From the NCBI GenBank assembly GCA_964442745.1, contig CAYUAI010000011.1, forward strand, positions 4,873 to 68,872: 64,000 bases of DNA, read 5' to 3'. Below the pieces are notes generated by a model that was not told where the DNA came from, made no database searches, and saw only the letters and a program-made list of their open reading frames with translations. Shown here in pieces: positions 206 through 36,193 of this stretch; the stretch's first letter is position 1, and the number at the start of each line of letters is the position of its first letter. Position numbers and translations under genes: made by a program. Origin of the DNA: an uncultured Chromatiales bacterium (GTDB taxonomy: Bacteria; Pseudomonadota; Gammaproteobacteria; S012-40).

Positions 206-342
206 CACCAACGTCGCCTGAAGACAGTGCCACGTAATCCGGGGAAAACGCAGCCCCTCTCCGGATTCCATGCCCATTCCTTATACCTCACTTCCCAGCA
301 TTGATAGAAATATACAGCTCAAGAAAATTTTAATTGATAAAT

Positions 343-359
343 ACCCCTCAGGGGTATAA
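343..359. promoter_or_regulatory. Putative CsoR-type operator: GC-rich inverted repeat ATACCCC-TCA-GGGGTAT just upstream of the copA ATG at 370
   Basis: Perfect 7-bp arms with a 3-nt spacer, seen directly. It resembles TACCC...GGGTA operators bound by CsoR-family copper sensors, and csoR lies in the same operon. Confidence 0.35.
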
Positions 360-369
360 ACTAATTCAC

Positions 370-2760: not shown

Positions 2761-2799
2761 CATCACGATACGTTTCACCACCATGATCAGGAGCAATCA

Positions 2800-3009
2800 A
2801 TGAAACAAATTACCTTAAAAATTTCGGGCATGACTTGTCATGGTTGCGTCACTAGCGTAACCAATGTATTGCAAGCCATCCCTGGGGTGAGCCAAGTCCA
2901 AGTCACACTTGAGCCCGGCGCCGCTAACCTCACATTCGATGCAACGCAAACGAATAGTGAGGCCCTTCATCAAGCCATCCAAACGGCGGGCTTCAATGTC
3001 ATCCGCTAA
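2800..3009 (+). CDS. copZ: Copper chaperone (single HMA domain)
   Basis: 69 aa with a GMTCHGC metal-binding motif and an RBS-like GGAGCAA upstream. Confidence 0.85.
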   Translation: MKQITLKISGMTCHGCVTSVTNVLQAIPGVSQVQVTLEPGAANLTFDATQTNSEALHQAIQTAGFNVIR

Positions 3010-3292
3010 AGAAACTCACCATAAGTCGACCATTCAACCGCGCAAAAAAGCTTTATTGAGCCGCTTAAAACGGGCCGAAGGCCAAGTACGCGGGGTCGCT
3101 AAAATGATCGAAGACGATCGTTACTGCATCGACATACTCACGCAAATTACGGCACTTCGCTCAGCGCTTGATGCCGTCGCAATCCAGCTCATCGAAGATC
3201 ACACTAAAGGTTGCGTAAAGGATTCGATTCGCCAGGGTGACGACGCCGCCATTGATGAATTGATAACTATCGTCAAACGTTTTGCACGTTAG
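2996..3292 (+). CDS. csoR: CsoR/RcnR-family metal-sensing transcriptional repressor (copper-sensitive operon repressor). It overlaps the copZ 3' end by 14 bp.
   Basis: The R..GQ..G...MIEDDRYCIDIL...H..GC signature of DUF156/CsoR with its Cys-His-Cys ligand set. A start at ATG 2996 gives about 98 aa; the ORF track's 2909 start would add an unlikely N-extension. Confidence 0.75.
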   Translation: MSSAKETHHKSTIQPRKKALLSRLKRAEGQVRGVAKMIEDDRYCIDILTQITALRSALDAVAIQLIEDHTKGCVKDSIRQGDDAAIDELITIVKRFAR

Positions 3293-8105: not shown

Positions 8106-8492
8106 AAATGCGATTCCGGCTCTGTTTTACAGCGTCGGCTTTGTTGGCTCCGGCGCTTGCCTCCTACCCCATTCCCTGCTCAACCAAAATCTAAAAAAAG
8201 CTGAAATGCTTATTCCGGTTAAAAATAAATCATCTGCTCATCCGCCAAAAGTCACCCAAAAAATTCGACATCGGATTGACACTGCCGTTCGAATGCGATA
8301 TTTTTATCCATTCGAAAAAAAACAGGCTATTTGATAGATTTATCCTACATCGCACTTTCATAACTGCTCATTAAAACAGTTGACTGTACGACTTAAGCCT
8401 ATCCTTCAACATTTTAAAATTGAATCATCGAGCGACGCTTTGTATGGGCTAATGGTTACTCCTAGACTCAATGACCATGGAATACATATTCA

Positions 8493-9287
8493 ATGAAAGC
8501 GTATTTTTTACAGCCCAACAAGGTTATTGTCGATGCCATCGGAATCATACTCATTGGCATTGTTGTCAGTTTTCTACTTTATCGTATTTTCATGCCACCA
8601 AACAATATCGCAGATACTGAACCAGGTCGATTGCTTGCCAAAAATGGGCGCGGCTCAATTCCGACATGCAACAATTGTCATGGTCAGAATGGCGAAGGCG
8701 ACTTTAAAAATGGTCTACCTCGTCTCGCCGGTCTCGATGCAAAATACATTGAAAAGCAATTAGAAGATTTTGCCAGAGACCCGCTGCCGACACGGACTTA
8801 TCTTAAACCGATAACCAAGGATTATACAAAAACACCTCGCACCGATGGCAATCTCACTGTTTTTACACCCGGAATACGTATCAATACGGTGATGAATAAA
8901 CTGGCAAAATTACTGTCTAGGCAAGATCGCCAAAACCTGGCTATTTACTACAGCCAACTGAGATTTGTAGCGCAACCTATCGAACATGATTTTAAAGCCC
9001 TAGAACGTGGCCAAGATCTGGCGCTAAGAGGCAAACCTAAAGATGGTGTACCGGCCTGTCTCTCTTGCCACGGCCCCCTCGGGGAAGGATTTGGACCATT
9101 ATTCCCCCCACTGGCTGGCCAACCCGCCAGCTATATCAAAAAACAAATTACCCACTGGCAAATCGGCAAAAGAGATAATGACAATCAGGCTTTAATGCGC
9201 AATATAGCTAATCAATTAACCGATGACGATAAGCAGCATATCGCCGCCTATTATAGCCATCAATCCTATTCAGTTAATGCAGATTAA
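8493..9287 (+). CDS. Membrane-anchored diheme c-type cytochrome (TsdB-like / cytochrome c4-like)
   Basis: N-terminal TM helix and two CxxCH motifs (CNNCH, CLSCH), each in a cytochrome c domain. Its stop lies 3 bp before the next diheme gene, suggesting a co-transcribed pair. Confidence 0.5.
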   Translation: MKAYFLQPNKVIVDAIGIILIGIVVSFLLYRIFMPPNNIADTEPGRLLAKNGRGSIPTCNNCHGQNGEGDFKNGLPRLAGLDAKYIEKQLEDFARDPLPTRTYLKPITKDYTKTPRTDGNLTVFTPGIRINTVMNKLAKLLSRQDRQNLAIYYSQLRFVAQPIEHDFKALERGQDLALRGKPKDGVPACLSCHGPLGEGFGPLFPPLAGQPASYIKKQITHWQIGKRDNDNQALMRNIANQLTDDDKQHIAAYYSHQSYSVNAD

Positions 9288-9290
9288 ACC

Positions 9291-10205
9291 ATGCGCGTCA
9301 TCAAACTATCGATTTTGCTCATACTATCAATCCCTTTAATCACCAGTCAAGGGCAGGCCGCCACCATGGGGCAAAACCTAAATCCCCAGAAAATCAGAGC
9401 TTCACTCGTCACTCCAGCGCTAAGTTTACCAACAACTTTTGTTCAGACTCAGATCACTAATCCTGGTAAATATTTTATCCCTCCTTTGGTTGCAAATATC
9501 CCGAATGATAAATTTGGTGACATGGTGAGATTGGGCCGTCACATTTTTGTGAATACCCAAAAGTATGCTAAGCGTTATGTAGGTAATGGACTCAATTGCA
9601 CAAGTTGTCATTTACAGGAAGGGCGAAAACCCTACGCGGCCCCGATCTGGGCAGCCTATGGAATGTATCCAATGTACCGTCAAAAAAAACGTTCGGTGGT
9701 AACATATCAAGAGCAAATACAGGACTGTTTCATCTATAGCCTAGACGGTATCGCGCCAACGCTCGATACCCCTGAAATGAAAGCCCTGGTCAGTTATTCA
9801 AAATGGCTATCAAGAGGAGTGCCGATTAATGTTGAATTTCCTGGTCGTGGTTTTCCTCATGTACAACGCTCACAGGACCTGGACCCCAAACGTGGAAAAA
9901 TTATCTATGAAACACGATGCATGATGTGTCACAGAAAAAATGGCCAGGGTCAAAAAAATAAAAATGGTGAAGGTTATATGTTTCCTCCGGTATGGGGCAG
10001 TGACTCTTACAATAAAGGGGCAAGCATGCAACGCATCAAGACCCTGGCAGAATTCATTAAGGGTAACATGCCATTGGGTGCTGGATTTACTTTATCAGAC
10101 CAGGCGGCCCTGGATGTAGCAATGTATATCTGGTTGCAAGATCGCCCAAAAAATCCAAAAAAGAGTTTTATTATGGATTTCTTTTATCCAAATATGTCAC
10201 ATTAG
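9291..10205 (+). CDS. Periplasmic diheme c-type cytochrome, candidate thiosulfate dehydrogenase (TsdA-like)
   Basis: Signal peptide and two heme motifs (CTSCH and CMMCH), with a conserved Cys downstream of heme 1 and a K..M downstream of heme 2. It is paired with an upstream diheme cytochrome as in tsdBA loci. The family assignment is from memory and needs HMM confirmation. Confidence 0.45.
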   Translation: MRVIKLSILLILSIPLITSQGQAATMGQNLNPQKIRASLVTPALSLPTTFVQTQITNPGKYFIPPLVANIPNDKFGDMVRLGRHIFVNTQKYAKRYVGNGLNCTSCHLQEGRKPYAAPIWAAYGMYPMYRQKKRSVVTYQEQIQDCFIYSLDGIAPTLDTPEMKALVSYSKWLSRGVPINVEFPGRGFPHVQRSQDLDPKRGKIIYETRCMMCHRKNGQGQKNKNGEGYMFPPVWGSDSYNKGASMQRIKTLAEFIKGNMPLGAGFTLSDQAALDVAMYIWLQDRPKNPKKSFIMDFFYPNMSH

Positions 10206-10211
10206 TCACTT

Positions 10212-12044
10212 ATGATCAATCGCAAACAAGCCTGGTATTTCTATCTTTTTCCATTCTTACATTGGTTGCCAATGTTAAATCGGCAAGCGGTCAAGAGTGA
10301 CCTGATAGCCGGCATGACAGCGGGCGTATTGATTCTACCCCAAAGTATTTCATTAGCTTCGCTGGCAGGGATGCCACCTGAATATGGATTATATACTTCA
10401 ATGTTCCCGGTTATTTTTGCCGCCCTATTCGGCTCTTCCTGGCACGCCATGTCAGGACCCAATACGGCAATCTGTATACTCATCGCCTATTCAATTGCAC
10501 CGTACGCCAGTGTGGCCTCGCCCGAGTGGATCCAGTATGCCATCACTCTGGCGTTTATGGCAGCCATTATACAAATTTCTTTTTCACTACTACGATTTGG
10601 TATCGTCTTTAATTATTTTTCTCAAACGGTCATGGTCGCATTAATTACCGGCGTAGGCATCATTATCATCATTTCTCAGTTAGGCAATTTTATGGGCGTG
10701 CTAATGAACACGGCAGAGCCCATAGAAAATGCATTGCCACAGATTATTTATGCATTGACACGCGCCAACTGGTTTGCGGTGGCCGCAGGAACAATAACCG
10801 TGTTAGCCGGTTTTTTGATTAAGCGTTATCGCCCCCAATGGCCTTTTCTTATTATTGCGGTCGTATCGGGCATGCTGTTTGCGAAGTGTCTTGAGCTTAT
10901 TTTTAGTCCCGCTGCTGTGCAATTTGATAAGCTTGGCATGATGTCATTGTCTGGCTTACCACTTTCGGCACCTGACTTCAGCCCAGAAAACTATGCAGAA
11001 GCTGCACAAGGGCTTTTACCGGCGGCTTTTTCTATCGCGTTTCTTGGACTCATACAAGCCTCGATCATTGCCCGAGCCATGGCTGAAAAATCCGGTCAAC
11101 ATATTGATGTTAATCAAGAGGCACTAGGACAAGGTATCGCCAACCTAGCAGGCAGCTTCTTATCTTGCTTCCCAAGTTGCAGCTCATTTAATCGAAGTGC
11201 CTCAAATTATGAAGCCGGCGCACGTACTCCGCTTTCTGCTTTGATATCGGTGCTGACCTTGGTCGTTATCATTATTTTTGCAACCCCTGTCATTGCTCAC
11301 ATGCCAATCGCCGTAATGTCTGGAGTATTGTTGCTGGTCGGTGCCGGACTAATTAAAAAAAATGATATTATTAAAGTATTCAAAGATAACAAAGAAACCC
11401 GTTTTATCTTTCTACTGACACTCGTGACAACGGTTTACGGTGGACTCGATCATGCCGTATTCCTAGGTATCGCCTTATCGATCATTTCTTATTTGAAAAT
11501 TGCATCCAAACCTAAAATTGAATTACTAAAAGGCAAGGCGGCCAAACCCTATGTGCCCCCGTCAAACTTTCAGCCAACAGCTCGCTCTGTGCCAATCAAG
11601 AATGCGAAAAAACAGAAGCCTCAAACAAAAATGCCTTATCTGGTCAAAAATTTAGTGTTACCCATAGAGAAAAATAACGATTTATTCAATGACTCAGAAA
11701 TAAATATTGAGATACAAAATCCATTTGAGTGTGTGACAGTTTTACAAATTTCAGGCAGTATTTTTTTTGGGTCCACACACCAAATCGAACAAGCTTTCAC
11801 CCATTTAAATACACAGGACTCAAGAAAAAAAGATCTCATTATTTCAGCCGAAAATATCCAATACCTGGACATCAGCGGCGCAGAAACACTAAAAAGAGAA
11901 GCTGAAAAACGTAAAATCAATGGTGCTCAAGTTTCAATTTGGTTACGCAACCACAGCCTGGATCAAGTGCTTTTAAACAGCGGCCTGATAAATGTTGTCG
12001 GCAAAGATAATATATATTACGTACCCATCGCGGCCTGGATTTAG
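10212..12044 (+). CDS. SulP-family anion (sulfate/bicarbonate) transporter with a C-terminal STAS domain. The true start may be the internal Met near 10272.
   Basis: Multi-TM SulP core with a C-terminal STAS-like domain (VLQISGSIFFGS...). A Lys/Pro-rich linker (KPKIELLKGKAAKPYVPP...KKQKPQTK) lies between the TM and STAS domains. Confidence 0.8.
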   Translation: MINRKQAWYFYLFPFLHWLPMLNRQAVKSDLIAGMTAGVLILPQSISLASLAGMPPEYGLYTSMFPVIFAALFGSSWHAMSGPNTAICILIAYSIAPYASVASPEWIQYAITLAFMAAIIQISFSLLRFGIVFNYFSQTVMVALITGVGIIIIISQLGNFMGVLMNTAEPIENALPQIIYALTRANWFAVAAGTITVLAGFLIKRYRPQWPFLIIAVVSGMLFAKCLELIFSPAAVQFDKLGMMSLSGLPLSAPDFSPENYAEAAQGLLPAAFSIAFLGLIQASIIARAMAEKSGQHIDVNQEALGQGIANLAGSFLSCFPSCSSFNRSASNYEAGARTPLSALISVLTLVVIIIFATPVIAHMPIAVMSGVLLLVGAGLIKKNDIIKVFKDNKETRFIFLLTLVTTVYGGLDHAVFLGIALSIISYLKIASKPKIELLKGKAAKPYVPPSNFQPTARSVPIKNAKKQKPQTKMPYLVKNLVLPIEKNNDLFNDSEINIEIQNPFECVTVLQISGSIFFGSTHQIEQAFTHLNTQDSRKKDLIISAENIQYLDISGAETLKREAEKRKINGAQVSIWLRNHSLDQVLLNSGLINVVGKDNIYYVPIAAWI

Positions 12045-12102
12045 CCATAGGTATGTAAGAAAAATCATTAAATATATCTCTTTATCTTCTTTTATCCAGG
12101 TC

Positions 12103-12128
12103 GTGTGGATTAAGCGCAGAAAATCCAC
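12103..12128. repeat. REP-like hairpin (GTGGATTAAGCGCAG..AATCCAC), family 1, at the left edge of the AT-rich island
   Basis: The same hairpin core recurs at 20048, 20165, 20936, 21055 and 36097. Confidence 0.4.
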
Positions 12129-12495
12129 AGCCATGAGCGACGTCATAAGATTTCAATATCGCCTTGAAATAATGATAATTCCAAGGTGCATTAATCTGTT
12201 AATTATAGCAAAAGAAAATGGCAACAATTTTGACAAAAAAACAATCAATATAGAGTGCCTGTAATTGCTTTAACTTAACATAGAATCAAGGTCATACCTT
12301 ATTTAGAAAGCATCTATCCTCGTCATATTTATCGATATATCGACAACAGAAGTTCATGGCTTTAATTTATAAGTTTGACGACTGGATCTCAAATTACACC
12401 TACACTCCAAAGAATTCAAAAATTAAAACGATACATCTTTAGTTAAAGGATTTTAATTAGCTATTAAATTTTATGATCTGCGGGAGTTTGACTAA

Positions 12496-14214
12496 ATGTC
12501 ATCAGATAGTTTCGATATTTTTAGACTATGGCCAAATTTTAGTAGCCTATTCGATTCACAAGCTTTTGGAACAGAAGCCTTTAGTGCGTTGATTGTCGCT
12601 ATACTGTTTGCGATTTTCATTATATTTTCAACATACAGTCTTGTGCAATATTTTAGAGCAAATAAACACATAAAATTACTCTCAAAACTTATTGATAATC
12701 CATCAGGAGAGATACATCACCAAAGACGGCTCTTAAAAAAACAAGCGATAAAAAAAGGCAACATGGGCAAACTCTGGCTGGAATTTGATGGCACGTTAGT
12801 TGAGCACCCTATTGACAAAAAACCTTGCAATACTTTAAATGCCTCTCATTTTTTTAATGCGCATTCACTCGCACCTGGCATCACCGAGAATCGTTTGTTA
12901 GCCGCCGTTCCTGGTTTCCTAACAGCATTAGGCGTCATCGGCACCTTTGCTGGTTTACAAATGGGACTAACGGGAATCAATCTTAGCGGTAGTGTTAACG
13001 ATATGAGAACGGGTATCACGACCGTTATTGATAGCGCATCAATAGCCTTTTTAACTTCGGTATGGGGCATCTTAACGAGCGTTGTATTCAACCTTTATGA
13101 AAAAATACTCGAACGAAGGATTAAAGATAAAATTCGTCAACTGCAAAATAAAATCGATTTTCTCTTTCCTCGAATCAATGCCGAGCAATCACTGATAGCT
13201 ATCGCTAATTCAGCCGAAGCTTCACAGGATACTTTAAATGGTTTAGCGGAAAAAATCGGTGACAAAATGCAAGAAGCTGTTTCGGGTATTAGCTCAGGTA
13301 TTCAGTATGGTATTGAACAGAGCATGGGCTCTGCCGTAGACAAGTTAGTCGTCGCGGCTGATCAGTTATCAGACAAACAAGCGGGTGGAACACAACACGC
13401 ATTAGAAGAATTGGTCGCTAAATTTATCACCCATGTTAGTGAAGCTGGTAAATCCCAACGTGACATAATGAACAGTGCAACTTCTGATTTTAAAGCAACA
13501 ATTAAAGGTTGGCAAGGTAACATGCAAACATTAGCAGATCATATGGAAAGCCAACAATCATCATCAGCTCAACAAGAACAGTCACGTATTGAATCCATGC
13601 AAACGATGCTCAATCAGAATAGCCGCTTATATGAGTCCTTTGAAAACATAGCCGACAAGTTATCTAATGCTTCGAGTATATTGAATGATTTTTCTAAACA
13701 AGTTGTGACAGCAACCAGCCATATGGGACAGGCAGGCATGAGTGTTGAACAAGCCGCTAAAGCCATGAATAATGAAATACGTGTGGCCGTGCAAACTACT
13801 ACGCACCTGGCTGAAGAAAATACTAAAGTGGCTCAACAAGAAGTCGCGCTACTCGAAGTGATTAATGAACTAAATACCCAACTTTCATCCACCTCAGACA
13901 ATGTTTCTAAATTCATGAATCTTTCTGGCACAATATTTGAAAAAATGCAAGACTCTCAAGTATCTTTCCAGCAAAGTATGGAACAAAATGTCACAAACTA
14001 TAGAACGTCTATCCATCAGCAAATTGAAGAATTTAGCAAGAAGGTCTCTGGGTTTTTACATCAATATACTCAAGAGGTTGAATCACAGACATCAAGCCGA
14101 TTGGGTACCTGGAATAAACAAACGGAAGATTACAGCAAATCCATGATTAATGTTGTCAATGCAATGCAGTGTCTCATTGATGAAGTTGAATCTAAAACGA
14201 AAGCGGTGGCCTAA
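12496..14214 (+). CDS. zorA: ZorA-like protein: MotA/ExbB-family proton-channel membrane domain with a long C-terminal coiled-coil tail (Zorya anti-phage system component A)
   Basis: Three TM helices including the MotA/ExbB-like LAAVPGFLTALGVIGTFAGLQMGL segment, then about 370 aa of low-complexity predicted helix (Q/S/E-rich). GGGAG RBS; tightly coupled (3-bp gap) to a MotB-like gene. Confidence 0.7.
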   Translation: MSSDSFDIFRLWPNFSSLFDSQAFGTEAFSALIVAILFAIFIIFSTYSLVQYFRANKHIKLLSKLIDNPSGEIHHQRRLLKKQAIKKGNMGKLWLEFDGTLVEHPIDKKPCNTLNASHFFNAHSLAPGITENRLLAAVPGFLTALGVIGTFAGLQMGLTGINLSGSVNDMRTGITTVIDSASIAFLTSVWGILTSVVFNLYEKILERRIKDKIRQLQNKIDFLFPRINAEQSLIAIANSAEASQDTLNGLAEKIGDKMQEAVSGISSGIQYGIEQSMGSAVDKLVVAADQLSDKQAGGTQHALEELVAKFITHVSEAGKSQRDIMNSATSDFKATIKGWQGNMQTLADHMESQQSSSAQQEQSRIESMQTMLNQNSRLYESFENIADKLSNASSILNDFSKQVVTATSHMGQAGMSVEQAAKAMNNEIRVAVQTTTHLAEENTKVAQQEVALLEVINELNTQLSSTSDNVSKFMNLSGTIFEKMQDSQVSFQQSMEQNVTNYRTSIHQQIEEFSKKVSGFLHQYTQEVESQTSSRLGTWNKQTEDYSKSMINVVNAMQCLIDEVESKTKAVA

Positions 14215-14217
14215 ATT

Positions 14218-14946
14218 ATGGCATCATTTAATCAAAATGTACCATCAAAAGTTGATGAAGAAAACCCGTATTGGATATCATTCTCCGATATCATGGCCGG
14301 TCTATTGGTTATCTTTATTTTAGCTACGCTGCAATTGATTATAGAATTATCAGAACAACAAGATAAAGTGGAAACAGCCATTAATGAAGTGAAACGTGCT
14401 AATCAAGTGAAAAGTGAAATTTTACATGAAGTGAAGTTAGCGCTGGATAAAGCTGGGATAACGGTTGAAATTAGTGATAATACAGCCATTATCCATATTC
14501 CGAGAAATACCTTGACATTTCCTAATAACAGCGCACGTATCCCCACAGAACAAAAGAACGATATAAAAATTATTGGTGAGATATTATATACATCGATAGT
14601 ACAAAACAATCGTGATCAGTATATTGACACAATTTTTATTGAAGGTCATACCGATAGCCGCAGATCTCATTATAAAGGCACTGGAAATTGGGGATTATCA
14701 GCAGATCGAGCCATATCAATATGGCGATTCTGGGAAAGCGAGCAGAGCACACAATCATTGTGGATGTTAAATAATTTTCGTGGAGAAAAAATGTTTTCCG
14801 TCAGTGGCTATGCCGCAACCCGACTCTTGAGTCACCATAATGAGACTGAAGAGCAACATGAAAAAAATCGACGCATTGATATTCGCTTTACAATGAAACA
14901 GCCAAAATTAATTGACTTTGAAAATATCAATCAAATATTAAAATAA
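14218..14946 (+). CDS. zorB: ZorB-like protein: MotB-like membrane anchor with an OmpA-like peptidoglycan-binding domain
   Basis: N-terminal TM with the conserved Asp (WISFSDIMAGLLVIFIL) typical of the MotB/ExbD plug-TM. C-terminal OmpA-like motif (IEGHTDS...GNWGLSADRA). Confidence 0.75.
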   Translation: MASFNQNVPSKVDEENPYWISFSDIMAGLLVIFILATLQLIIELSEQQDKVETAINEVKRANQVKSEILHEVKLALDKAGITVEISDNTAIIHIPRNTLTFPNNSARIPTEQKNDIKIIGEILYTSIVQNNRDQYIDTIFIEGHTDSRRSHYKGTGNWGLSADRAISIWRFWESEQSTQSLWMLNNFRGEKMFSVSGYAATRLLSHHNETEEQHEKNRRIDIRFTMKQPKLIDFENINQILK

Positions 14947-14949
14947 TCC

Positions 14950-16452
14950 ATGATAAAAATTCCTACCATCAATATCAATTTTACGAATATCGTAACCGAT
15001 AATAGCCAGCTACTTTACCAGTCAATGACCAGCCATTTAAATACCATTGCAGGTTTGTCTGGCAGTACTTCTGACATATTTTCCCAAAGCTGTGAAAAAA
15101 TTCGTTCCATCGCGTTTGCTGAAGACACAAATATTATTGACGCGCTGCATATCCCGCGAGACATACGCGCTATTATTCAACTTTGGCGTACCGATGACGA
15201 TTTTTTAGAAAAGAAAAAAGTAAGTTCATCCATTCTCAGTCATTTTCGTACGATTAGAAAAAAACAAAGTATCATTGCTTTTTATGCACTGGTGCAATTG
15301 TATTTTGAAAAATATGATGAATGTGGTGATATCAATCGTTTATCAAATTTTTTACACGAAGAGTTTACACGACAAGAGGGTCGATCGCTATCAACAGAGA
15401 TGGAAAAAATTGCGGAGCATAAAGATTTTATATTTTGCAATAATAGTCATGAAGCCGTTGTTGCATTAGCTAATCAACGACAACAAAGTCTAGATGATGC
15501 ATTACAATCGATTGGTGTTAACATTTCAAGGGAAAGTCGTTTTTCACAGCAATGTATGGCTCAATACTATATTGATACCTTAAAAAAATTACACCCACAT
15601 GAGGACACCCAGCTATTCCAAGAAATAACTCAGCCACGAATTTATAATAGTCCCTATGGTGAAGGAACACGCTTGGGACATAAAATAATCCAAGCGATTA
15701 TCGACAACGTTAAAGATAACGGTTTTGAGATTCCTGAGATATGGCTACAAGCCATTATAACCATTGCTGGTGATCCAAGAGTACCTATCTCATCAAAATC
15801 CTATCAAACATGGTGGATGATTCTTCCCAAGTATTGTGATCGAATGATTCGTCAATGGTTAAGCCGTGTTGACTTAGCCTTGTTTTTTGAGGTACTCGAA
15901 GAACATGCAAATCGCAGCAGCAATATGGAATTGCAACGAATGTATCCTGCGCGAAAGATTTTTTTAGAAGGGCTTTATAAACAAAATTTAATCAGTTATT
16001 CAAAGCTTTTCATTGGTAATAGCGCCGTTAAATTTTTAAAGGAAAACTACAATCAAGAACAATTACCCGTATATTACACGCTAAAAGATCGTGACAAATC
16101 CATTATTTATCTTAACATCAATGGAATACATATTGTCGAGGGATCACATAATTTTTGTTTCTGGATCTATGATAAATTACCTGATGATAACCCCATTGAT
16201 AATGATTTTTCTGAAAATATAGCACCCATTGATCTGAGCGGAAATTTAAAAAAACGCTATAAGATGATGTTGCATTATAATAGCAGTTATGTCAACAATC
16301 CGTTTCCTTTACAGATAAGGCATCAGCCACATCTAACTTGGCAACATAAAGTGATTCAAGGATTGCAAGGTTTAGACATACCTATTAAAGTCGAAGAGAT
16401 GTTTTCCAGTACTGATTACCGTGATTACCAACGTTGCTATGGACGATATTGA
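14950..16452 (+). CDS. zorC: ZorC-like protein (soluble, no recognizable domain; position and size match Zorya type I ZorC)
   Basis: 500-aa ORF with its start 3 bp after the zorB stop. Assigned by operon context only. Confidence 0.5.
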   Translation: MIKIPTININFTNIVTDNSQLLYQSMTSHLNTIAGLSGSTSDIFSQSCEKIRSIAFAEDTNIIDALHIPRDIRAIIQLWRTDDDFLEKKKVSSSILSHFRTIRKKQSIIAFYALVQLYFEKYDECGDINRLSNFLHEEFTRQEGRSLSTEMEKIAEHKDFIFCNNSHEAVVALANQRQQSLDDALQSIGVNISRESRFSQQCMAQYYIDTLKKLHPHEDTQLFQEITQPRIYNSPYGEGTRLGHKIIQAIIDNVKDNGFEIPEIWLQAIITIAGDPRVPISSKSYQTWWMILPKYCDRMIRQWLSRVDLALFFEVLEEHANRSSNMELQRMYPARKIFLEGLYKQNLISYSKLFIGNSAVKFLKENYNQEQLPVYYTLKDRDKSIIYLNINGIHIVEGSHNFCFWIYDKLPDDNPIDNDFSENIAPIDLSGNLKKRYKMMLHYNSSYVNNPFPLQIRHQPHLTWQHKVIQGLQGLDIPIKVEEMFSSTDYRDYQRCYGRY

Positions 16453-16454
16453 CA

Positions 16455-19400
16455 ATGGCTATTTGGGATATTATAAAATCAATCGTTGGTAATAATTCTC
16501 AGGAAACCTTATTTTCTATTGAACCTGATACTCACGGCCTATCTTTAGTATTGCCAACTGACTTGATGGATCATTGTCAATTGGGCTCGGCAAGTCCTTG
16601 GTTACTAAATCAGTTTATTCATTTACAAATGCTGACAGAAGAAGGCATTGCTGAGCCGCGTGAGAGTGGATTTTTTATTTTCACCGAAGAAGCTGTCAGA
16701 CTAGAGAATGATCTTAAATATCTATTGCAATTCCCACCACCGTGGCCGGGACAATTTAATGTCAGCTATAAAAATCACACCACCTCCAATGGCTTTGATA
16801 TCGCATTACAGCTCATTGATACCGATGGTGAAAAAACGGAATGCTATCAGGTAAAAGGTCCTCTGATTATCCTCGCTGAGACCGAAATCTACTTACCAAG
16901 CATCGAGCAATGGATAGCGATTGAGGCAATAGAAAAGCACAAAATGCTATCGACAAATGAGCGCAGCGAGTATGCTAATCTACTCGCCATCGACCAATTG
17001 CAGCAAGCTAAACAAGCCGGTGCGACAATAAATCTCAGGCATTTTAACGATATTGATACGCTAAACCCTAAGCAGATCACCGTATCTGGATTGACTCGTG
17101 ATAATGGTGATCTTGAACTGGTGCCTACATTTGACGGACTAACGGATATTGATGCCATTCGAACTCGATTGTGGCAAGTGACGGACGGTCATCAAGCCAC
17201 CAGTATTCGTGTTAAAAACAAAATTGTCTTGCTTAATGAAAAAAAACTGAAAGCGACTCAAGAAATAATCAATCACAACATTATCCCCAAGGAACAAATA
17301 GCAACTTTTCTCAAAACACCTTCTGCCTTTTTAAATGCCGCACTGGTTGATCTCGACTCAGGTTTTTCATTGCGTGTGTTAGGTGCCACGAAATTTAAAC
17401 ATGCTTATTTTGGGGATACCGATGAGGCAAATATTGACTGGTTTTCCAGCAAATATGAAAATACCTCGATCATCATGCCGAATAAACTTGAGAGTATCAT
17501 CAAATCAGAAGATGAGTTAACCCAGTTTAATCAACTTTTAGTCGATGCACAACAAAGTGGTGCAGAACAAATCGTTTTTAAAAAACATACCGTCGATGTG
17601 AGTGACACCCAGGCAATCCAACAGGCCATCATTGATATTTCCGAACAATTAAATGCCCGGCAGGATGAAAAACATGAGGCAGATGAGGTAGAAGAGACAG
17701 CAAGTGAATTTGTTACCACCGTGGTTGATATCAAAGATAATGATTTAGAAGTTAATTTTGGAAAAAACAATAACTCGATACAAGCATCTTATGAGGATGA
17801 TATTGACTGGAAACGTTATAAGCGCACGCCTTTCCATTATCAGGAAACGGGAATTCGTTGGATCTTGGGGTTGGCCGAGCCATCATTGAATGAAGTGACT
17901 AATCAATACGGTGGACTACTCGCCGATGACATGGGTCTTGGCAAAACATTTATGTCATTAGTCGCGATTAGTGAATATCAATCTTTATTAAAAAAGAAAG
18001 CCATGACTGAATGTCCAGTGCTTGTTGTTGCGCCTTTATCTTTATTAGCGACTTGGCAAAAAGAGGCCGAATTAACCTATCATGACAGTCCCTTTGATGA
18101 CATCGTGGTACTACAATCCAACGCTGACTTAAATCAATTCAAAGTGACGGGTGCTAGCATTGAAACGCATCAAGCGAAAGAGACTGATTTAGACAACATT
18201 CGATATGCGCTAAAAGTAGGTAGCCACTATGGAAACAATCGGCTTGACCAACCTAGACGATTAATATTAACCACTTACCAAGCCATGAGAGATTACCAGT
18301 TTTCGCTTTGTCGAATTGACTGGTCGATGGTCATATTTGATGAAGCACAATTGATTAAAAACCCAAATACATTAGCTTCGCGAGCAGCGAAAGCGTTAAA
18401 AGCAAAATTCAAACTCGTGGCCACTGGCACGCCCGTAGAAAACAGTCTCTGTGATTTTTGGTGTTTAATGGATACCGCAATACCCGGCTTGCTTGGTTCT
18501 TACCAAGATTTTCGCAAGACTTATGTGCAACCCATATTATCGGCTAAAGATGATCAACGGCAACGCAAAGAACAAATTGGTAAACAATTACGCCAACATG
18601 TGGGTGCATTTATGTTACGTCGAATTAAAGAAGATCAACTCGAAGGTTTACCCACCAAAACAATCTATGTCGGTGATCGCGAAGCGATGGGTACGGAAAA
18701 ATATATGCCTGAGATTTATTGTACAATGCAGTCAGAACAACATCAGCGTTATGATACCGTAGTTTCTTATGTGAATGAGCAACAAATGGAAACCAGTGGA
18801 AATGTTGTTTTACAAGGATTACATCGTTTACGGGATCTTTCGTTACACCCCAAATTAATGGATCAAGGTAAGTTGCTTCCACCGACAAATCGCAAGGAAG
18901 CAAAGCAATCAATTGAACAATCAGCTAAATTAAAACATGTATTTAAACTTTTAGAACAAGTTAAAGAAAGAGATGAGAAAGTGATTATATTTCTCATTAA
19001 CAAGCGATTACAGGCTTTTTTGAAAGTGGCTTGTGAGCGTATCTTTGATATTACTGTGGCAATCATTAATGGTGACACTCAAGCCATCGCTAAAAAATCG
19101 TCTACTGAAACCCGTCAATCCATGATTCAAGCGTTCGAGAAAAAAACTGGATTTGGTATCATTATTATGTCACCCGTAGCCGCAGGAATGGGTTTAACTG
19201 TGGTCGCCGCTAATAATGTGATTCATTTGGAAAGACATTGGAATCCTGCCAAAGAGGCTCAAGCCACCGACAGAGTATATCGCATCGGTCAAACACGTGC
19301 GGTTAACGTTTACCTACCCATTCTTCAACATCCTGATCTAAACATTAACTCCTTTGATGTCAACTTGAATCGTCTGTTAAACCAAAAATGTGCGCTAAAA

Positions 19401-19931
19401 GATGCCATCATTACACCCGAAACTGCCACCGGATCAGAGATGTCGGTAACGTTTGGTCACGGCGTCAAGCAAGCGATAACAACAAAGTTTAACAGAGAAA
19501 ATCTCACGCAACTGACTTGGCAACAATTTGAAGCACTGACCGCTGAACTATTAGCCAAGTCTTATACTGGAGAAGCTCAACTGACGCAACAAGGTGCCGA
19601 CGGCGGAATTGATGTGGTTATACGTAGCAAAACCAAAAATCTATTGGTTCAATGTAAACACACTTCACGCAACAAAAAAATGCGTTCGCAAGAGGCTCTC
19701 AAAGAACTGGTTTATGCACGAACTCATTATAATAAAGCGTTTAATCAAGAATTTGATACTTTAGTATTCGTCACTAATGCCAAGAATTTTTCAACCAAGG
19801 TAAAAAGTGCAGCCAATCAGCACGAAATAACATTGATCGATTTAATCAGTTTATCCAAATTGCTTGATGAATACCCAGTGACAGAGCGTGACATTCTTAC
19901 TCGACTCGACAAACCACGTCTTGCTATCTAA
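16455..19931 (+). CDS. zorD: ZorD-like protein: large SNF2-family helicase/ATPase with a C-terminal Mrr-type PD-(D/E)xK restriction-endonuclease domain. An alternative start at 16434 overlaps zorC.
   Basis: SNF2 N-domain motifs (LLADDMGLGKT, DEAQ box in MVIFDEAQLIKN, TGTPVEN) and helicase-C motifs (QATDRVYRIGQTR). The last about 120 aa match the Mrr catalytic core (GADGGIDVV...LLVQCKH...VFVTN). Confidence 0.7.
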   Translation: MAIWDIIKSIVGNNSQETLFSIEPDTHGLSLVLPTDLMDHCQLGSASPWLLNQFIHLQMLTEEGIAEPRESGFFIFTEEAVRLENDLKYLLQFPPPWPGQFNVSYKNHTTSNGFDIALQLIDTDGEKTECYQVKGPLIILAETEIYLPSIEQWIAIEAIEKHKMLSTNERSEYANLLAIDQLQQAKQAGATINLRHFNDIDTLNPKQITVSGLTRDNGDLELVPTFDGLTDIDAIRTRLWQVTDGHQATSIRVKNKIVLLNEKKLKATQEIINHNIIPKEQIATFLKTPSAFLNAALVDLDSGFSLRVLGATKFKHAYFGDTDEANIDWFSSKYENTSIIMPNKLESIIKSEDELTQFNQLLVDAQQSGAEQIVFKKHTVDVSDTQAIQQAIIDISEQLNARQDEKHEADEVEETASEFVTTVVDIKDNDLEVNFGKNNNSIQASYEDDIDWKRYKRTPFHYQETGIRWILGLAEPSLNEVTNQYGGLLADDMGLGKTFMSLVAISEYQSLLKKKAMTECPVLVVAPLSLLATWQKEAELTYHDSPFDDIVVLQSNADLNQFKVTGASIETHQAKETDLDNIRYALKVGSHYGNNRLDQPRRLILTTYQAMRDYQFSLCRIDWSMVIFDEAQLIKNPNTLASRAAKALKAKFKLVATGTPVENSLCDFWCLMDTAIPGLLGSYQDFRKTYVQPILSAKDDQRQRKEQIGKQLRQHVGAFMLRRIKEDQLEGLPTKTIYVGDREAMGTEKYMPEIYCTMQSEQHQRYDTVVSYVNEQQMETSGNVVLQGLHRLRDLSLHPKLMDQGKLLPPTNRKEAKQSIEQSAKLKHVFKLLEQVKERDEKVIIFLINKRLQAFLKVACERIFDITVAIINGDTQAIAKKSSTETRQSMIQAFEKKTGFGIIIMSPVAAGMGLTVVAANNVIHLERHWNPAKEAQATDRVYRIGQTRAVNVYLPILQHPDLNINSFDVNLNRLLNQKCALKDAIITPETATGSEMSVTFGHGVKQAITTKFNRENLTQLTWQQFEALTAELLAKSYTGEAQLTQQGADGGIDVVIRSKTKNLLVQCKHTSRNKKMRSQEALKELVYARTHYNKAFNQEFDTLVFVTNAKNFSTKVKSAANQHEITLIDLISLSKLLDEYPVTERDILTRLDKPRLAI

Positions 19932-20012
19932 CAATATTGAGGTCAAATCTTTACTTTTACTATTTTATCACCCATGATTGCTTGATAGAGATATTGTTAC
20001 GTATTTATTATA

Positions 20013-20290
20013 GGTAAGTTTAAACTGATTTCAGGAAAAATAAACTCGTAGGGTGGATTAAGCGCAGCGAATCCACCCTAAACCCGCCTCGAAAACAAAT
20101 CAATTCCCCCTGGCATTATTCTCATTTCAATGGCCGATTTGAGCATGATGACGTCGCTCATGGTGGAGTGGATTCGCTACGCTTAATCCACACGACATGG
20201 ATAAAAAAAGAGGAAGCGATATTTTTTAATGATTTTTTTGTAAAAAAACGGCATAAAATAACTTTCCCTCTGAAAGCAGTTTAAACTTAC
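20013..20290. mobile_element. MITE-like non-autonomous element (family 1, copy A, about 278 bp)
   Basis: Terminal inverted repeats GGTAAGTTTAAACTGATTTCAGG and CTGAAAGCAGTTTAAACTTAC. Two internal REP-like hairpins in opposite orientation. No ORF. Confidence 0.5.
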
Positions 20291-20438
20291 TATTATCGTA
20301 TAAGTAAAGATTCCCCCCCTAGTCCCAAGTTAACTTTCCACCTTCTGTCGGGTTATTTTTCTCATTCAATTCACCGGACATCTATCCTGACACAGGGGGG
20401 TCTCCCGCCCGTTAACCGAAAGTTATTTTATGCATTTT

Positions 20439-20726
20439 TCATGTGTATTCTCTCGAAAAATAAGTCAGTGGATCAATCACATTGATGCCATTTTTATCGT
20501 AAGAATGTTTTAGATTGGCAACAATTTGGGTGGCGCGTTTAGGTTTAAGGCGTTGGGCATAATATTGAAGTGATTTTGAAAGTGTATCATCACCATACTT
20601 AACTTCGATTAGCTCTTCAATTACGCCTTCTTTAACAATCACAAAATTAACCTCGATAGCATTCGCCAAATCTCGTTGGCTAATTTCCAATGGAAGAAGA
20701 AACTCTTTAGTGATAATCAGTAATTT
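20439..20726 (-). pseudogene. 3' fragment of a DUF4143-type AAA+ ATPase gene (5' end missing)
   Basis: The C-terminal pattern EVNFVIVKEG..IEVKYGDD...SL.YYAQRL...IVANLKHSYDKNGINVIDPLTYF matches the DUF4143 C-terminus. The frame is closed upstream by a stop at 20727, with no N-terminal ATPase core. Confidence 0.45.
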
Positions 20727-20871
20727 CTACATCAAATGGGCCGGATTCACTCCACTTAAAGTAAACCCGATATTGAACATTAATTCTTATATTAAATTCA
20801 TCTTTTCTATCACCAGATAAGCTCTCAAAGCGATTCCCCGGTGGCACTTTAAGTTCGTCTAAATTTAGCAT
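20707..20871 (-). pseudogene. higB: Truncated higB-like toxin gene (HigB/'plasmid maintenance system killer' family), last about 54 codons only
   Basis: Minus-strand translation gives MLNLDELKVPPGNRFESLSGDRKDEFNIRINVQYRVYFKWSESGPFDVEITDYH*, the conserved C-terminal half of HigB. An in-frame TAA lies immediately upstream, and the missing N-terminal region is occupied by MITE copy B. Confidence 0.55.
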
Positions 20872-20899: not shown

Positions 20900-21080
20900 G
20901 CGTAAGTTTAAATTGATTTCAGAGAACAATCGATGGGTAGCGTGGATTAAGCGGAGCGAATCCACAAGAAACAAGCCTCGAAAACCAATGAATATACCCT
21001 TGGTCTTGTCCTCATTCAATGCCACACTGGCACATGATTACATTGTTCATCGCTGATGTGGATTCGCTCCGCTTTAATTT
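20900..21080. mobile_element. Truncated MITE-like element (family 1, copy B; left TIR only)
   Basis: Left TIR GTAAGTTTAAATTGATTTCAG plus two REP-like hairpins (20936-20962 and 21055-21078). No right TIR. Confidence 0.45.
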
Positions 21081-21746
21081 TAACACTGGGCATGACCACC
21101 AGCGCTAACGCCACCCCGATTGATCAACTGATTGATCGGGGCAACGGCATGATCTACGACACGCATGAGGATTTGACCTGGCTACAGGATGCCAACTACG
21201 CCCAGACCAGTGGTCTATGATGCCGATGGCCGCATGAACTGGAGTACAGCTACAGACTGGGCAGCTGGCTTGAGTTACGGTGGTTATGACGACTGGCGTT
21301 TGGCCAACGTGACCGACGATGGTAATAATAGCTGTGACTGGGACTACAGTGGCACTGATTGTGGTTACAACGTCGATACCTCCAGTTCTGAACTGGCTTA
21401 CATGTGGTACGACATTCTGGGTAACACACCGTATTCCGACACCAGTGGCAATAGTTCGCAGAGTGGTTGGGGCTTAACTTCTACCTCTGCCGATGGGGTT
21501 GACATTCTGAATCTTCAGCCCTTCCGTTATTGGTCGGGTACGGAGTATGCGTCCATTCCCAATCGCGAGTGGGACTTCCTTACCTGCAATGGCGACCAGA
21601 GCCACCTCAATAAGAATGGTGCGGACTATGCGTGGGCTGTTCGCTCCGGTGATGTCGCCGCTATTGCAGTGCCTGAACCTGGCACCTTCTTGTTGCTGGC
21701 CGTCGGTTTGGCCGGTATTTCAGGTACTAAACAGCGGCGTTGCTGA
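21056..21746 (+). pseudogene. PEP-CTERM-anchored DUF1566 (Lcl C-terminal domain-like) secreted protein, apparently frameshifted near 21200-21225. The ORF track gives only the 21189..21746 portion.
   Basis: The frame from ATG 21056 encodes a signal peptide (MWIRSALILTLGMTTSANA) and the DUF1566-like DLTWLQDANYAQTSG, then stops at 21218-21220. The +1 frame continues with MNWSTATDWAAGL...DDWRLANV and ends in a PEP-CTERM sorting signal (VPEPGTFLLLAVGLAGISGTKQRR). The first 8 codons derive from the REP hairpin of MITE B. Confidence 0.45.
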
Positions 21747-21839: not shown

Positions 21840-22085
21840 ATGGCACGTTACGAACATCTGCCAATTTACAAACAAGCCATGGACGTGGCTGTGTACTTTG
21901 AAAAAGTGGTGGCGGGTTTTTCCCGCTATCACAAATACACCCTTGGCACTGAGCTGCGCAACAAAAGCCGCGAAGTAGTAACGTTGATCGTCAAGGCCAA
22001 TGGTGAGCGTAATAAACGACCACTGTTGCTGGAATTGCGCGCTTGTTTGGATGAGCTATTGATGCTGGTTCGTTTAGCGATTTAA
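21840..22085 (+). CDS. Hypothetical small protein, possibly a four-helix-bundle (23S rRNA IVS protein-like) family member
   Basis: 81 aa. The helix pattern LPIYKQAMDVAVYFEKVV...FSRYHKYTLGTELRNKSREVV loosely resembles TIGR02436-like proteins. Weak. Confidence 0.3.
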   Translation: MARYEHLPIYKQAMDVAVYFEKVVAGFSRYHKYTLGTELRNKSREVVTLIVKANGERNKRPLLLELRACLDELLMLVRLAI

Positions 22086-22118
22086 CCACTACTAACAGGC
22101 AAATGATGGGTGCTCGTT

Positions 22119-26524: not shown

Positions 26525-28333
26525 ATGACATATGAAACATTTGATCTATTTGCGACTAACCTCAAACCAGATGCCGATGTAGAGCAAGTAAAAAATAGTC
26601 TAGCCAAGCACTTTAAAACATCGCCTGACAAACTAGATATTTTTTTTCAACGTTTAATCGATACTAAAGAGCCCGAAAAAATTCAAAAAAAATTAAGCCT
26701 CGATGTCGCACAAAAAAACAAAGAAATTATTGAAAAGCTGGGGCTTTTTTGCGATATCAAACCTTCGCTAGCATTAGCATCAATAATGCCCGAAGGCGCG
26801 AGCTATCAATGTCCCGCTTGTGGACATCGACAAAATCCGTCAGTCAGTAATCCGGATGTTTGCAAGATTTGTGGTGTTGTCGGCAGTAAATACCTAGATA
26901 AGGACAGCGACAAAAAGATTTTAAAGCGAGAAATGCAAAGACACCATCGCATGAAGAAGATTCGTGAGCAATGCCAGCAAAGTCAAAATGAAATCAATAA
27001 TCGGGAAAATAAAATTAAGGAGATTCGTGAACAACTAGAAAAAAAAGACCGAAAAGCAATAGCGCACCCATTGGCACTAGGATCGATAGCTGTTATCGCT
27101 TGCGGCATGTTGGCATTGCAATTTTACAATGAATACGCGACCGTTACTCCGGATGGGGCTGAGGTAAAATCAGCTTCAGTACAAGCCTCTATTGATGCAA
27201 GTCCAAAAGATTCAACAACGATGGTATCCGGGTTAACACAGGATCAAACAGTGGCAAAAATCGATCAACTGCAACAGGCATTGCCATCCATTGACGACTA
27301 CCCATCGTCAAATCAAGAGTTCTTAGCAAGCGCAAAGGCGCTGAGTGCCACAGGTGCATCATATCCTCCGGTCAGCTCTTCCATTGAGCCATCCCAGGTC
27401 ACGACCGATGCACAAGTTCAATTAAATTCGATAAACGAATTGTCCAACGCATCTGATATGAAGTTGAATACAGATGGAGCACCACTAATGCACTCGGACA
27501 TGAGCAACGTTGCCGACAAGAATTCGTCAGACAACTTGATGGAACAGAATGTTTTGATGGCTAAAAATCAGAATTTACAGGCTCAAATCAGTCATGATGC
27601 AGCGAGTATTCAAAATAATGACGTCGATCAACCAGAAAATGTGACTGAATCCATTGACAGCGCTCACCAGCGTATCCTCGCACTCATTAACATTTCCCGT
27701 GAAAAACTAACATTAGGTGACCCGGCGGGCGCTGAGTCTGTTTTGAATAAAGCCGAGCAAACTGCAGACACAATCATTTCACCCATTGAGCAGATCAAAT
27801 CCTACGGATTAATCGCCACTGCATTCAGTGAATTACAGGATAAATCTAATGCTCAAAGGGTGTTTGATACAGCGCTAGTATATGCTAATCGCCTAGCGGA
27901 CCCTGTCGATAAGGTTTCTTCCTTGACAATCGTCGGTGGGCATCAAGCAGCTAGTGGTAACAAGGAAGCGGCACGAAAAAGTTTCGAGTTAGCGCAAAAT
28001 TTTGCCACCAAAAATATCGTCAACCCAGAAGTACGAAATACCGCGTATCAGGTCATCGCGCTGAGTCGAGCAATTACTGCCGATTTTCAAGAAGCATTAA
28101 AAGTTGCCGATAAAATCACGCGGCCACTCATGCGCACCGATATCATAAAGAAACTTGCCGATATTCAGTTTTATTTAGGAAAAAAAGACGAGGCGAAGCG
28201 CACTTATTCATACGCCTTGAAAAATAGCGTGCATATCCCCGACGTTTCACAGAGAAGGGGCATGCTTGATAGGATCATTGCAGCGCTTGAGAATGTGGAC
28301 GCTCAAACGCCACCCTCCGTCGTTGGCCGCTAG
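26525..28333 (+). CDS. Hypothetical membrane-anchored protein with a C4 zinc-ribbon, coiled coil, single TM and C-terminal alpha-solenoid (TPR/HEAT-like) region
   Basis: CPACGH...CKICG zinc ribbon, a K/E/R-rich coiled-coil, the TM helix IAHPLALGSIAVIACGMLAL, an S/T/Q-rich linker and helical repeats at the C-terminus. Confidence 0.5.
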   Translation: MTYETFDLFATNLKPDADVEQVKNSLAKHFKTSPDKLDIFFQRLIDTKEPEKIQKKLSLDVAQKNKEIIEKLGLFCDIKPSLALASIMPEGASYQCPACGHRQNPSVSNPDVCKICGVVGSKYLDKDSDKKILKREMQRHHRMKKIREQCQQSQNEINNRENKIKEIREQLEKKDRKAIAHPLALGSIAVIACGMLALQFYNEYATVTPDGAEVKSASVQASIDASPKDSTTMVSGLTQDQTVAKIDQLQQALPSIDDYPSSNQEFLASAKALSATGASYPPVSSSIEPSQVTTDAQVQLNSINELSNASDMKLNTDGAPLMHSDMSNVADKNSSDNLMEQNVLMAKNQNLQAQISHDAASIQNNDVDQPENVTESIDSAHQRILALINISREKLTLGDPAGAESVLNKAEQTADTIISPIEQIKSYGLIATAFSELQDKSNAQRVFDTALVYANRLADPVDKVSSLTIVGGHQAASGNKEAARKSFELAQNFATKNIVNPEVRNTAYQVIALSRAITADFQEALKVADKITRPLMRTDIIKKLADIQFYLGKKDEAKRTYSYALKNSVHIPDVSQRRGMLDRIIAALENVDAQTPPSVVGR

Positions 28334-36057: not shown

Positions 36058-36193
36058 GGGTAAGTTTAAATTGATTTCAGAGAACAATAGATGGGTAACG
36101 TGGATTAAGCGTAGCGAATCCACGCTACCTGGAGAAAAGATGAGGTAGCGGTATTTTTTAATGATTTTTCCTGAAATCAGTTTAAACTTACCC
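36058..36193. mobile_element. MITE-like element (family 1, copy C, 136 bp) in the intergenic space between two glycosyltransferase genes
   Basis: Perfect TIRs GGGTAAGTTTAAATTGATTTCAG / CTGAAATCAGTTTAAACTTACCC. Central 13-bp-stem hairpin GGTAACGTGGATT..AATCCACGCTACC. No ORF. Confidence 0.55.

Follow-up and report, generated by a model that had tools for sequence, protein, structure and literature searches.

The question raised by positions 12496-19931 of the 64-kb stretch of DNA analysed here (the window) is whether the four genes found there form a complete Zorya anti-phage system, and of which kind. A sequence-only reading of the window had proposed a type I Zorya operon, zorA-zorB-zorC-zorD, and this identity was borne out by PADLOC and NCBIfam profile searches, by sequence matches in the PDB and by fold comparison, all of which agree. 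We are confident that the locus encodes a complete type I Zorya (zorABCD) of the Shewanella sp. ANA-3-like subfamily. The system is apparently functional, its host appears to be a gammaproteobacterium, and the operon has the look of a horizontal acquisition. As a new and divergent type I Zorya it illustrates a known system well and does not introduce a new kind. The operon can be called automatically with PADLOC or DefenseFinder, and its proteins are already in public databases, where they are unnamed. The main value of the finding is a correct annotation: a full set of type I Zorya genes is recognised in a host that has been little sampled, and the nearest ZorA is just 42 % identical.

Gene content and assignment to type I

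The four genes were found as uninterrupted open reading frames (ORFs) on the forward strand, in single copies and in the order A-B-C-D: zorA at 12496-14214 (572 amino acids, aa), zorB at 14218-14946 (242 aa), zorC at 14950-16452 (500 aa, an EH-signature protein) and zorD at 16455-19931 (1158 aa). The intergenic gaps are 3, 3 and 2 nt, in keeping with the four co-directional and tightly coupled genes that had been described. An overlap of zorC and zorD, which had also been described, was not upheld. The mechanical ORF call had placed zorD at 16434-19931, with a TTG as the start. In this extended ORF the PADLOC ZorD profile does not match before residue 8, and the alignments of all relatives start with the first residue of the ATG form; the start is therefore the ATG at 16455, and zorC and zorD do not overlap. 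The DNA is 100 % identical in four public contigs, two from NCBI assemblies (GCA_006243105.1 and GCA_006243245.1) and two derived from the SRA (Sequence Read Archive), and the sequence is thus not a one-off assembly artefact. By megablast, the operon had no match in E. coli genomes or plasmids. The order zorA-B-C-D is repeated in all eight related loci, each of which has a ZorC orthologue.

In PADLOC the four proteins matched ZorA1 (E 2.3e-158), ZorB1 (5.4e-89), ZorC1 (1.3e-118) and ZorD1 (E 0, 1283 bits), the best-matching models being the Shewanella-like PDLC00601, 00608, 00617 and 00627. ZorA also scored 349.8 bits with the NCBIfam model antiphage_ZorA_2, for which the cutoff is 100. Zorya types II and III were rejected, as the downstream genes are ZorC and ZorD, not ZorE (HNH) or ZorF/ZorG, and the E-values of ZorA with ZorA2 and ZorA3 were 5.5e-14 and 3.9e-11, compared to 2.3e-158 with ZorA1. 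A DISARM or Dpd origin of the helicase gene was likewise rejected: DpdE matched with 1.2e-90 and DrmD with 1.1e-21, compared to E = 0 for ZorD1, and no Dpd/Drm partner genes were found nearby.

Full-length relatives of ZorA are at most 42 % identical to the ZorA described here, and a ZorA search of genome contigs returned relatives at 34-44 % identity. The closest natural relatives are two metagenomic zorABCD loci, L011 and L012, with ZorA of 594 and 589 aa. They share the gene order and the short ZorA tail, and their ZorD proteins (1161-1173 aa) also contain the Mrr_cat domain discussed below. The identities to these two loci are 40-42 % for ZorA, 52 % for ZorB, 34 % for ZorC and 50 % for ZorD. 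Unlike the present locus, they have kept Glu at position 99 and Pro at position 279 of ZorA, and their genomic contexts differ.

The ZorA-ZorB motor and its ion filter

Profiles, the PDB match and an AlphaFold2 (AF2) model built from 59 aligned sequences identify residues 1-228 of ZorA (encoded on the forward strand) as a MotA/ExbB-like motor subunit with three transmembrane (TM) helices, at about 26-50, 133-159 and 167-205. The modelled motor domain consists of the three TM helices and a beta-hairpin and has a pLDDT (predicted local distance difference test) of about 85-97 over residues 11-225. The best match in both sequence and fold, for ZorA as for ZorB, was the ZorAB complex of Shewanella sp. 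ANA-3 (8VVN; Mariano et al. 2025, PMC11890865). By sequence, ZorA matched chain 8vvn_C with E 9.2e-83 and E. coli ZorA with just 3e-8. In a Foldseek search of the model, Shewanella ZorA came first (8vvn_C, E 3.8e-15, TM-score 0.84-0.86 over the motor domain, root-mean-square deviation 2.4-2.7 Å), followed by E. coli ZorA and then by ExbB/TolQ at about 1e-3. High identity to Shewanella ZorA is confined to the motor domain (about 44 % in the fold alignment), where TM2 and TM3 hardly differ between the two proteins; the ion-filter residues of G-x-x-G-T and L-T-S, to which Na+ is bound in 8VVN, are shared.

ZorB is MotB-like, as had been read from the sequence. It has a TM aspartate, Asp24, in an SFSD motif (codon 14287-14289) and a peptidoglycan-binding domain of the OmpA type (Pfam OmpA, 1.2e-12), and both features are shared with Shewanella ZorB. 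The match to 8vvn_B had an E-value of 1.4e-72 with the SFSD motif aligned, that to E. coli ZorB 1.6e-5. Among 63 columns invariant in eight relatives, ZorB differs at one, which is no oftener than the relatives do.

The type I system of E. coli, EcZorI (8QYD and 8QY7; Hu et al. 2024, PMC11946911), has the same four-gene architecture. Pro139, Thr150 and Ser188 of ZorA align with EcZorA Pro136, Thr147 and Ser184, and ZorB shares with its E. coli counterpart the TM Asp and the N-x-x-L-x-x-x-R peptidoglycan-binding motif. The filters differ at one position: where E. coli has Gly183-Ser184 (H+ type), ZorA here has Thr187-Ser188 (13054-13059, +), as does Shewanella ZorA (Thr-Ser). The second part of the filter is Thr150 of TM2 (12943-12945, +), which lies within G146xxG149-T150xxG153 and equals EcZorA Thr147 and PomA Thr158. 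In a comparison set of the 120 best ZorA relatives, Thr150, Thr187 and Ser188 were unchanged in 120/120, and they are the same in Shewanella ZorA.

According to Hu et al. the E. coli ZorAB is proton-driven, since an additional polar residue is missing. Na+ has been seen bound at conserved Ser/Thr residues of Shewanella ZorAB (Mariano et al. 2025). The Vibrio Na+ stator PomAB (Hu et al. 2023, PMC10374538) shows the same filter logic: its PomA G154xxG157-T158xxG161, T185-T186 and PomB D24 correspond to G146xxG149-T150xxG153 and T187-S188 of ZorA and D24 of ZorB. In PomAB the Na+ filter consists of T158 and T185/T186 in a GxxGxxxG zipper, whereas H+ stators are without T158 and T185. Because all three polar positions of sodium-type stators are present (T150, T187 and S188, with ZorB D24), comparison with these homologues leads us to lean, by some margin over an even chance, towards Na+ rather than H+ as the coupling ion. 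The drive by proton-motive force that had been assumed for the operon is thus replaced by a probable sodium drive for the Shewanella-like subfamily. As this subfamily uniformly has the sodium-type filter, a drive by proton-motive force should not be generalised to all Zorya.

PomAB is a mechanistic analogue of the zor motor only, and it belongs to a different family. It represents the rotary motors of the ion-driven 5:2 class, a stoichiometry that would apply here by homology. Unlike PomAB, the zor motor has no flagellar context, has three TM helices instead of four and a long cytoplasmic tail, and is followed by genes for nuclease effectors.

The tail of ZorA

Three TM helices followed by a long tail had been predicted for ZorA, and both were recovered in the AF2 model; the length of about 370 aa given for the tail was too high. 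According to the model and alignments, the helical cytoplasmic tail comprises about 344 aa (aa 229-572; 13180-14211, +). Residues 229-571 are nearly all helical, with breaks at 274-299 and 404-410. The base of the tail (to about residue 360) and its tip are conserved, and Y524, W539 and M550 in the tip are invariant.

The tail is short because about 100 aa are absent from its variable middle. Compared to the class of 660-700 aa, a single block of about 98-102 aa is absent after residue 362, and about 100 aa are absent mid-tail compared to Shewanella ZorA (696 aa). In relation to the closest clade, in which ZorA has 589-615 aa, the tail is shorter by just 22 aa, and these closest short-tailed relatives occur within complete zorABCD operons. 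The E. coli ZorA tail has 507 aa and is about 70 nm long; by analogy, the tail described here may extend over an estimated 47-51 nm. The short tail is notable, not anomalous, and it lies inside the natural range. Natural ZorA lengths vary from 509 to 813 aa, with the variation in the middle of the tail, although engineered deletions of the middle inactivate the E. coli system.

ZorC and ZorD

ZorC had been described as a protein of 500 aa with no detectable domain. The length is correct, but the protein has a Pfam EH_Signature domain (PF15611) with an E-value of 3e-56, above the cutoff. A sequence search of the PDB gave no match for ZorC, and E. coli ZorC was undetectable by phmmer. Of 55 invariant columns, 11 are changed in ZorC, for the most part conservatively, and two other members of the family have like counts.

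ZorD agrees with the SNF2-family helicase of about 1160 aa that had been described, and it contains in addition a nuclease domain which the description did not mention. It consists of an N-terminal domain, a Snf2 ATPase core (Pfam SNF2-rel_dom 9.9e-46, Helicase_C 8.5e-13) and a C-terminal Mrr nuclease. The helicase motifs are intact: Walker A GLGKT at 494, DEAQ at 629, TGTP at 657 and motif VI QATDR at 936. The match to EcZorD (8QY7), with which the Snf2 core and its DEAQ box are shared, had an E-value of 1.3e-79 and was limited to aa 416-984. At seven of 245 invariant columns ZorD differs from its relatives, which is no oftener than these relatives do themselves.

The Mrr_cat domain of ZorD (aa about 1018-1136; 19506-19862, +) was detected by Pfam with an E-value of 6.8e-17. 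Its motif, D1049/D1053...Q1066-x-K1068, is intact and invariant across six Mrr-bearing relatives. The domain was found in seven of eight related ZorD proteins, but not in E. coli ZorD (1080 aa). As ZorD of this subfamily normally has the Mrr nuclease and E. coli ZorD is without it, the effector chemistry may differ from that of the E. coli model. An "Mrr-like nuclease" is part of the original description of ZorD (as cited in PMC11890865), matching the domain found here.

Proposed mode of action

If the system works like those of Shewanella, Serratia and E. coli, the inner membrane would contain an ion-driven rotary motor built of five copies of ZorA and two of ZorB, with the OmpA-like domain of ZorB holding on to the peptidoglycan. 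An infecting phage would perturb the envelope and thereby switch on the flow of ions past Asp24 of ZorB. These ions, here probably Na+, would turn ZorA, and the rotation is anticipated to travel down the pentameric helical tail, with its roughly 344 residues per chain. The tail would then recruit and activate ZorC, which with its EH-signature domain is presumed to bind DNA, and ZorD with its Snf2 ATPase and Mrr-type nuclease. Together ZorC and ZorD could break down the invading DNA near its site of entry.

Composition and junctions

The operon had been described as an AT-rich island, and its AT-richness is real, although modest. The G+C content (GC) is 38.5 % compared to 42.3 % in the window, which places the operon in the lowest 5 % of 7.4-kb windows, with the minimum on the operon itself. 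The GC of third codon positions is 0.30-0.36 in the zor genes and 0.34-0.56 in the 16 other genes measured, of which only orf165 (0.343) falls inside the zor range.

Upstream of the operon, two contigs of relatives (L013 and L016, with SulP proteins 86 % and 75 % identical to that of the window) share a block of cytochrome c, SoxA/TsdA-like and sulP genes, at about 8394-12025 of the window. In those contigs the block continues into dsrE-like and 5'-nucleotidase/SoxB-like genes, neither of which occurs anywhere in the 64-kb window. The DNA similarity stops at about 12025, in the last codons of sulP, which themselves differ, and SulP has 610 aa compared to 619-620 aa in the relatives.

Repeats resembling miniature inverted-repeat transposable elements (MITEs) flank the operon on both sides. 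A full MITE-like element of 311 nt (19997-20307, no strand assigned) starts 66 nt after the zorD stop codon and has terminal inverted repeats of 38 nt and two inner GTGGATT..AATCCAC hairpins of the GTGGATTAAGCGCAGCGAATCCAC type. At the left junction, a partial copy (12057-12200, -) directly follows the sulP stop codon, in the opposite orientation to the element after zorD. A second partial copy on the downstream side is found at 20902-21074 (no strand assigned) and a further copy at about 36060-36190; of the window's four copies, three thus abut the operon. The motif exceeds chance expectation (0 of 100 shuffles), and the hairpin of the downstream repeat folds, at a z of just -2. The four identical public contigs mentioned above all end either at 20043, inside the MITE-like element (two independent assemblies), or at 22094, just past a truncated bAvd gene, which suggests that these positions border multi-copy repeats in the source genome.

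Composition, the break in synteny and the flanking repeats together support horizontal acquisition of the operon. A composite transposon is not supported, as a transposase is missing and the repeat has a further copy at about 36.1 kb that does not adjoin the operon. The window yielded neither an integrase nor a transposase, and it contains no tRNA genes or Rfam families, hence no tRNA-linked integration site.

The 295 nt between the left repeat and zorA (12201-12495, +) are AT-rich and presumed to contain the promoter; no single site stands out in them. A perfect 12-nt palindrome, TCGATATATCGA, is located at 12332-12343, about 150 nt before the zorA start, and may be an operator or a chance occurrence.

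Points against an intact type I system and alternative explanations

Several observations weigh against the reading of the locus as an intact type I Zorya. The NCBIfam equivalogs of the E. coli type scored below their cutoffs (ZorA1 51 compared to 750 bits, ZorB1 42 to 400, ZorD 366 to 1500), and ZorC had no NCBIfam match at all. Neither a promoter nor a terminator was identified: 30 upstream sites were found when 28 were expected from shuffles, and there was no terminator after zorD. With 572 aa, ZorA is the fourth shortest in the set of 120, in which lengths run from 509 to 813 aa with a median of 661, and in E. coli engineered tail deletions, that of the middle included, abolish Zorya activity. 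The assignment of Na+ as coupling ion comes from homology alone. Two residues of ZorA depart from all of the other 119 sequences, against which departures were scored. At position 99 (codon GGC, 12790-12792, +) there is Gly instead of Glu in 119/119, the Glu of the E-F-D-E motif in Shewanella ZorA. By alignment this position equals EcZorA Glu89, which together with Glu86 provides the two side-chain ligands of a Ca2+ that ties the cytoplasmic domain to the end of TM3 (PMC11946911). The E. coli E86A/E89A double mutant is defence-dead, and its TM3-tail linker is altered (PMC11946911). At position 279 Ser replaces the Pro of 119/119 relatives, at the predicted helix break of the tail base. The equivalog scores have an explanation within type I: as these cutoffs are unmet while the Shewanella-like PADLOC models match best, the operon belongs to a non-E. 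coli subfamily.

Gly99 and Ser279 are the sole hints that the coupling of motor and tail may be altered or impaired. One explanation of them is that the frames are intact but the system is functionally impaired or starting to decay, the loss of the Ca2+ ligand (E99G) and the short tail uncoupling the motor from its effectors. The E. coli mutant phenotypes would agree with this, as would the setting of the operon among gene fragments (a truncated HigB, a truncated bAvd and another remnant). However, all four ORFs are uninterrupted, and ZorA is changed at just 4 of the 81 columns that are at least 95 % conserved among the 119 others (I73, G99, N115 and S279), a count that several relatives exceed. 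The ratio of the identities between our proteins and the others to the identities of the others among themselves was 0.96 for ZorA, 0.97 for ZorB, 0.88 for ZorC and 0.96 for ZorD. For the ZorA motor domain it was 1.01, i.e. this domain is conserved as in the relatives. Since the divergence ratios are similar across all four proteins, relaxed selection on zorA alone was ruled out. Glu96 and Asp98 are kept beside Gly99, of which the adjoining Asp98 could stand in as a ligand, and the E. coli result concerns the double mutant only. The tail has kept its base and tip, and short tails are also found in the closest clade within complete operons. We therefore regard impairment as unlikely; zorABCD gives the impression of a coherent, deeply branching operon and not of one in decay. 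It is possible, and we propose it only tentatively, that the lineage has a re-tuned type I Zorya, which is Na+-coupled, has a tail about 30 % shorter than that of E. coli, and does without one of the two Ca2+ carboxylate ligands (Gly99) and without the invariant Pro of the tail base (Ser279). If such a re-tuned system still protects, the Ca2+ clamp and the tail length would be adjustable parameters of Zorya signalling, not fixed requirements, and the operon would provide a natural exception to what truncations and E86A/E89A do in E. coli. Gly99 in particular provides a testable natural mutant of the Ca2+ site.

Two further explanations concern what the genes do rather than whether they still work. 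The MotA/MotB-like pair could be the stator or energiser of another machine (MotAB/PomAB, ExbBD-TonB or TolQR-Pal) next to an unrelated helicase, and there is a weak generic likeness to such proteins. Pfam MotA_ExbB matched ZorA with 20.4 bits (E 4.5e-4), under the cutoff of 22.9; NCBIfam MotB-family models gave 42-56 bits compared to cutoffs of 194-300; and ExbB/TolQ folds matched with E about 1e-3 and TM-scores of 0.4-0.5, compared to 3.8e-15 and 0.84 for ZorA. These matches are tens to more than 100 orders of magnitude weaker than the Zorya ones. A helical tail of about 344 aa is foreign to MotA, ExbB and TolQ, and no tonB, tolA, pal, other Ton/Tol or flagellar partner genes were found in the 64-kb window. 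The four genes are moreover tightly linked and co-occur in 8/8 related loci. The tests run refute this explanation, and we give it practically no weight. The other explanation is that of a Zorya-like module with a different conflict or DNA-processing role, directed against plasmids or other mobile genetic elements or acting in addiction of a repeat-bounded segment, and not phage defence as such. Inverted copies of the MITE-like repeat do bracket the operon, ZorD of the subfamily bears the Mrr-type nuclease, and Zorya effectors are able to target chromosomal DNA, as Mariano et al. propose. Against this stand the lack of a transposase or integrase, the repeat copy elsewhere in the window and the activity of all characterised homologues against phage; we consider such a role very improbable. 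An intact type I Zorya, acting in phage defence, is still the reading that we prefer.

Genomic neighbourhood

Named relatives of the SulP protein encoded beside the operon, at about 52-53 % identity, are from Beggiatoa sp. PS, Ca. Marithioploca, Ca. Halobeggiatoa and Ca. Kentrum. These matches make it probable that the host is a sulfur-oxidising gammaproteobacterium, uncultivated and related to Beggiatoaceae.

The operon had been placed next to a mobile-element junkyard in a typical defence island. The former description is apt: in addition to the MITE-like repeats, the downstream region contains an 83-aa ORF remnant (20439-20690, -) that weakly resembles the C-terminus of PADLOC PDC-S01, a HigB-like toxin fragment (20707-20871, -) limited to positions 41-86 of the 91 in the profile, and an orphan bAvd, truncated to 81 aa (21840-22085, +). 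The term "defence island" overstates a solitary operon amid repeats and gene debris, as PADLOC found no second defence system in ten neighbouring or unannotated proteins, with two marginal matches at E about 1e-4.

An Lcl_C-domain protein with a PEP-CTERM anchor is encoded at 21189-21746 (+), with a GC of 53.6 %, far above its surroundings. Together with the truncated bAvd it forms an orphan fragment of a diversity-generating retroelement; no reverse transcriptase of such an element and no template/variable repeat pair were found anywhere in the window. The relative's contig L013 has a full diversity-generating retroelement adjoining the cytochrome-sulP block.

Further downstream, a protein of 602 aa (26525-28333, +) had no family over threshold, with weak TPR-like matches and a marginal one to LmuB (E 3.6e-4). 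A large PEP-CTERM/exosortase exopolysaccharide locus occupies about 28587-57630 (-) and is followed in the window by cobalamin genes. It contains several GT4 glycosyltransferases, two sulfotransferases, a heparinase II/III-like protein, a polysaccharide deacetylase and a MurJ-like flippase, as well as Wzz/ParA-like chain-length and tyrosine-kinase-like proteins, a Poly_export protein, a TPR protein and the exosortase EpsH. The sulfotransferases suggest that the exopolysaccharide is sulfated. At the other end of the window, 334-3292 (+), a CopA-type P1B ATPase gene and, after it, one for a CsoR/RicR-like repressor make up a copper-homeostasis pair, whose GC of about 50 % is well above the window mean.

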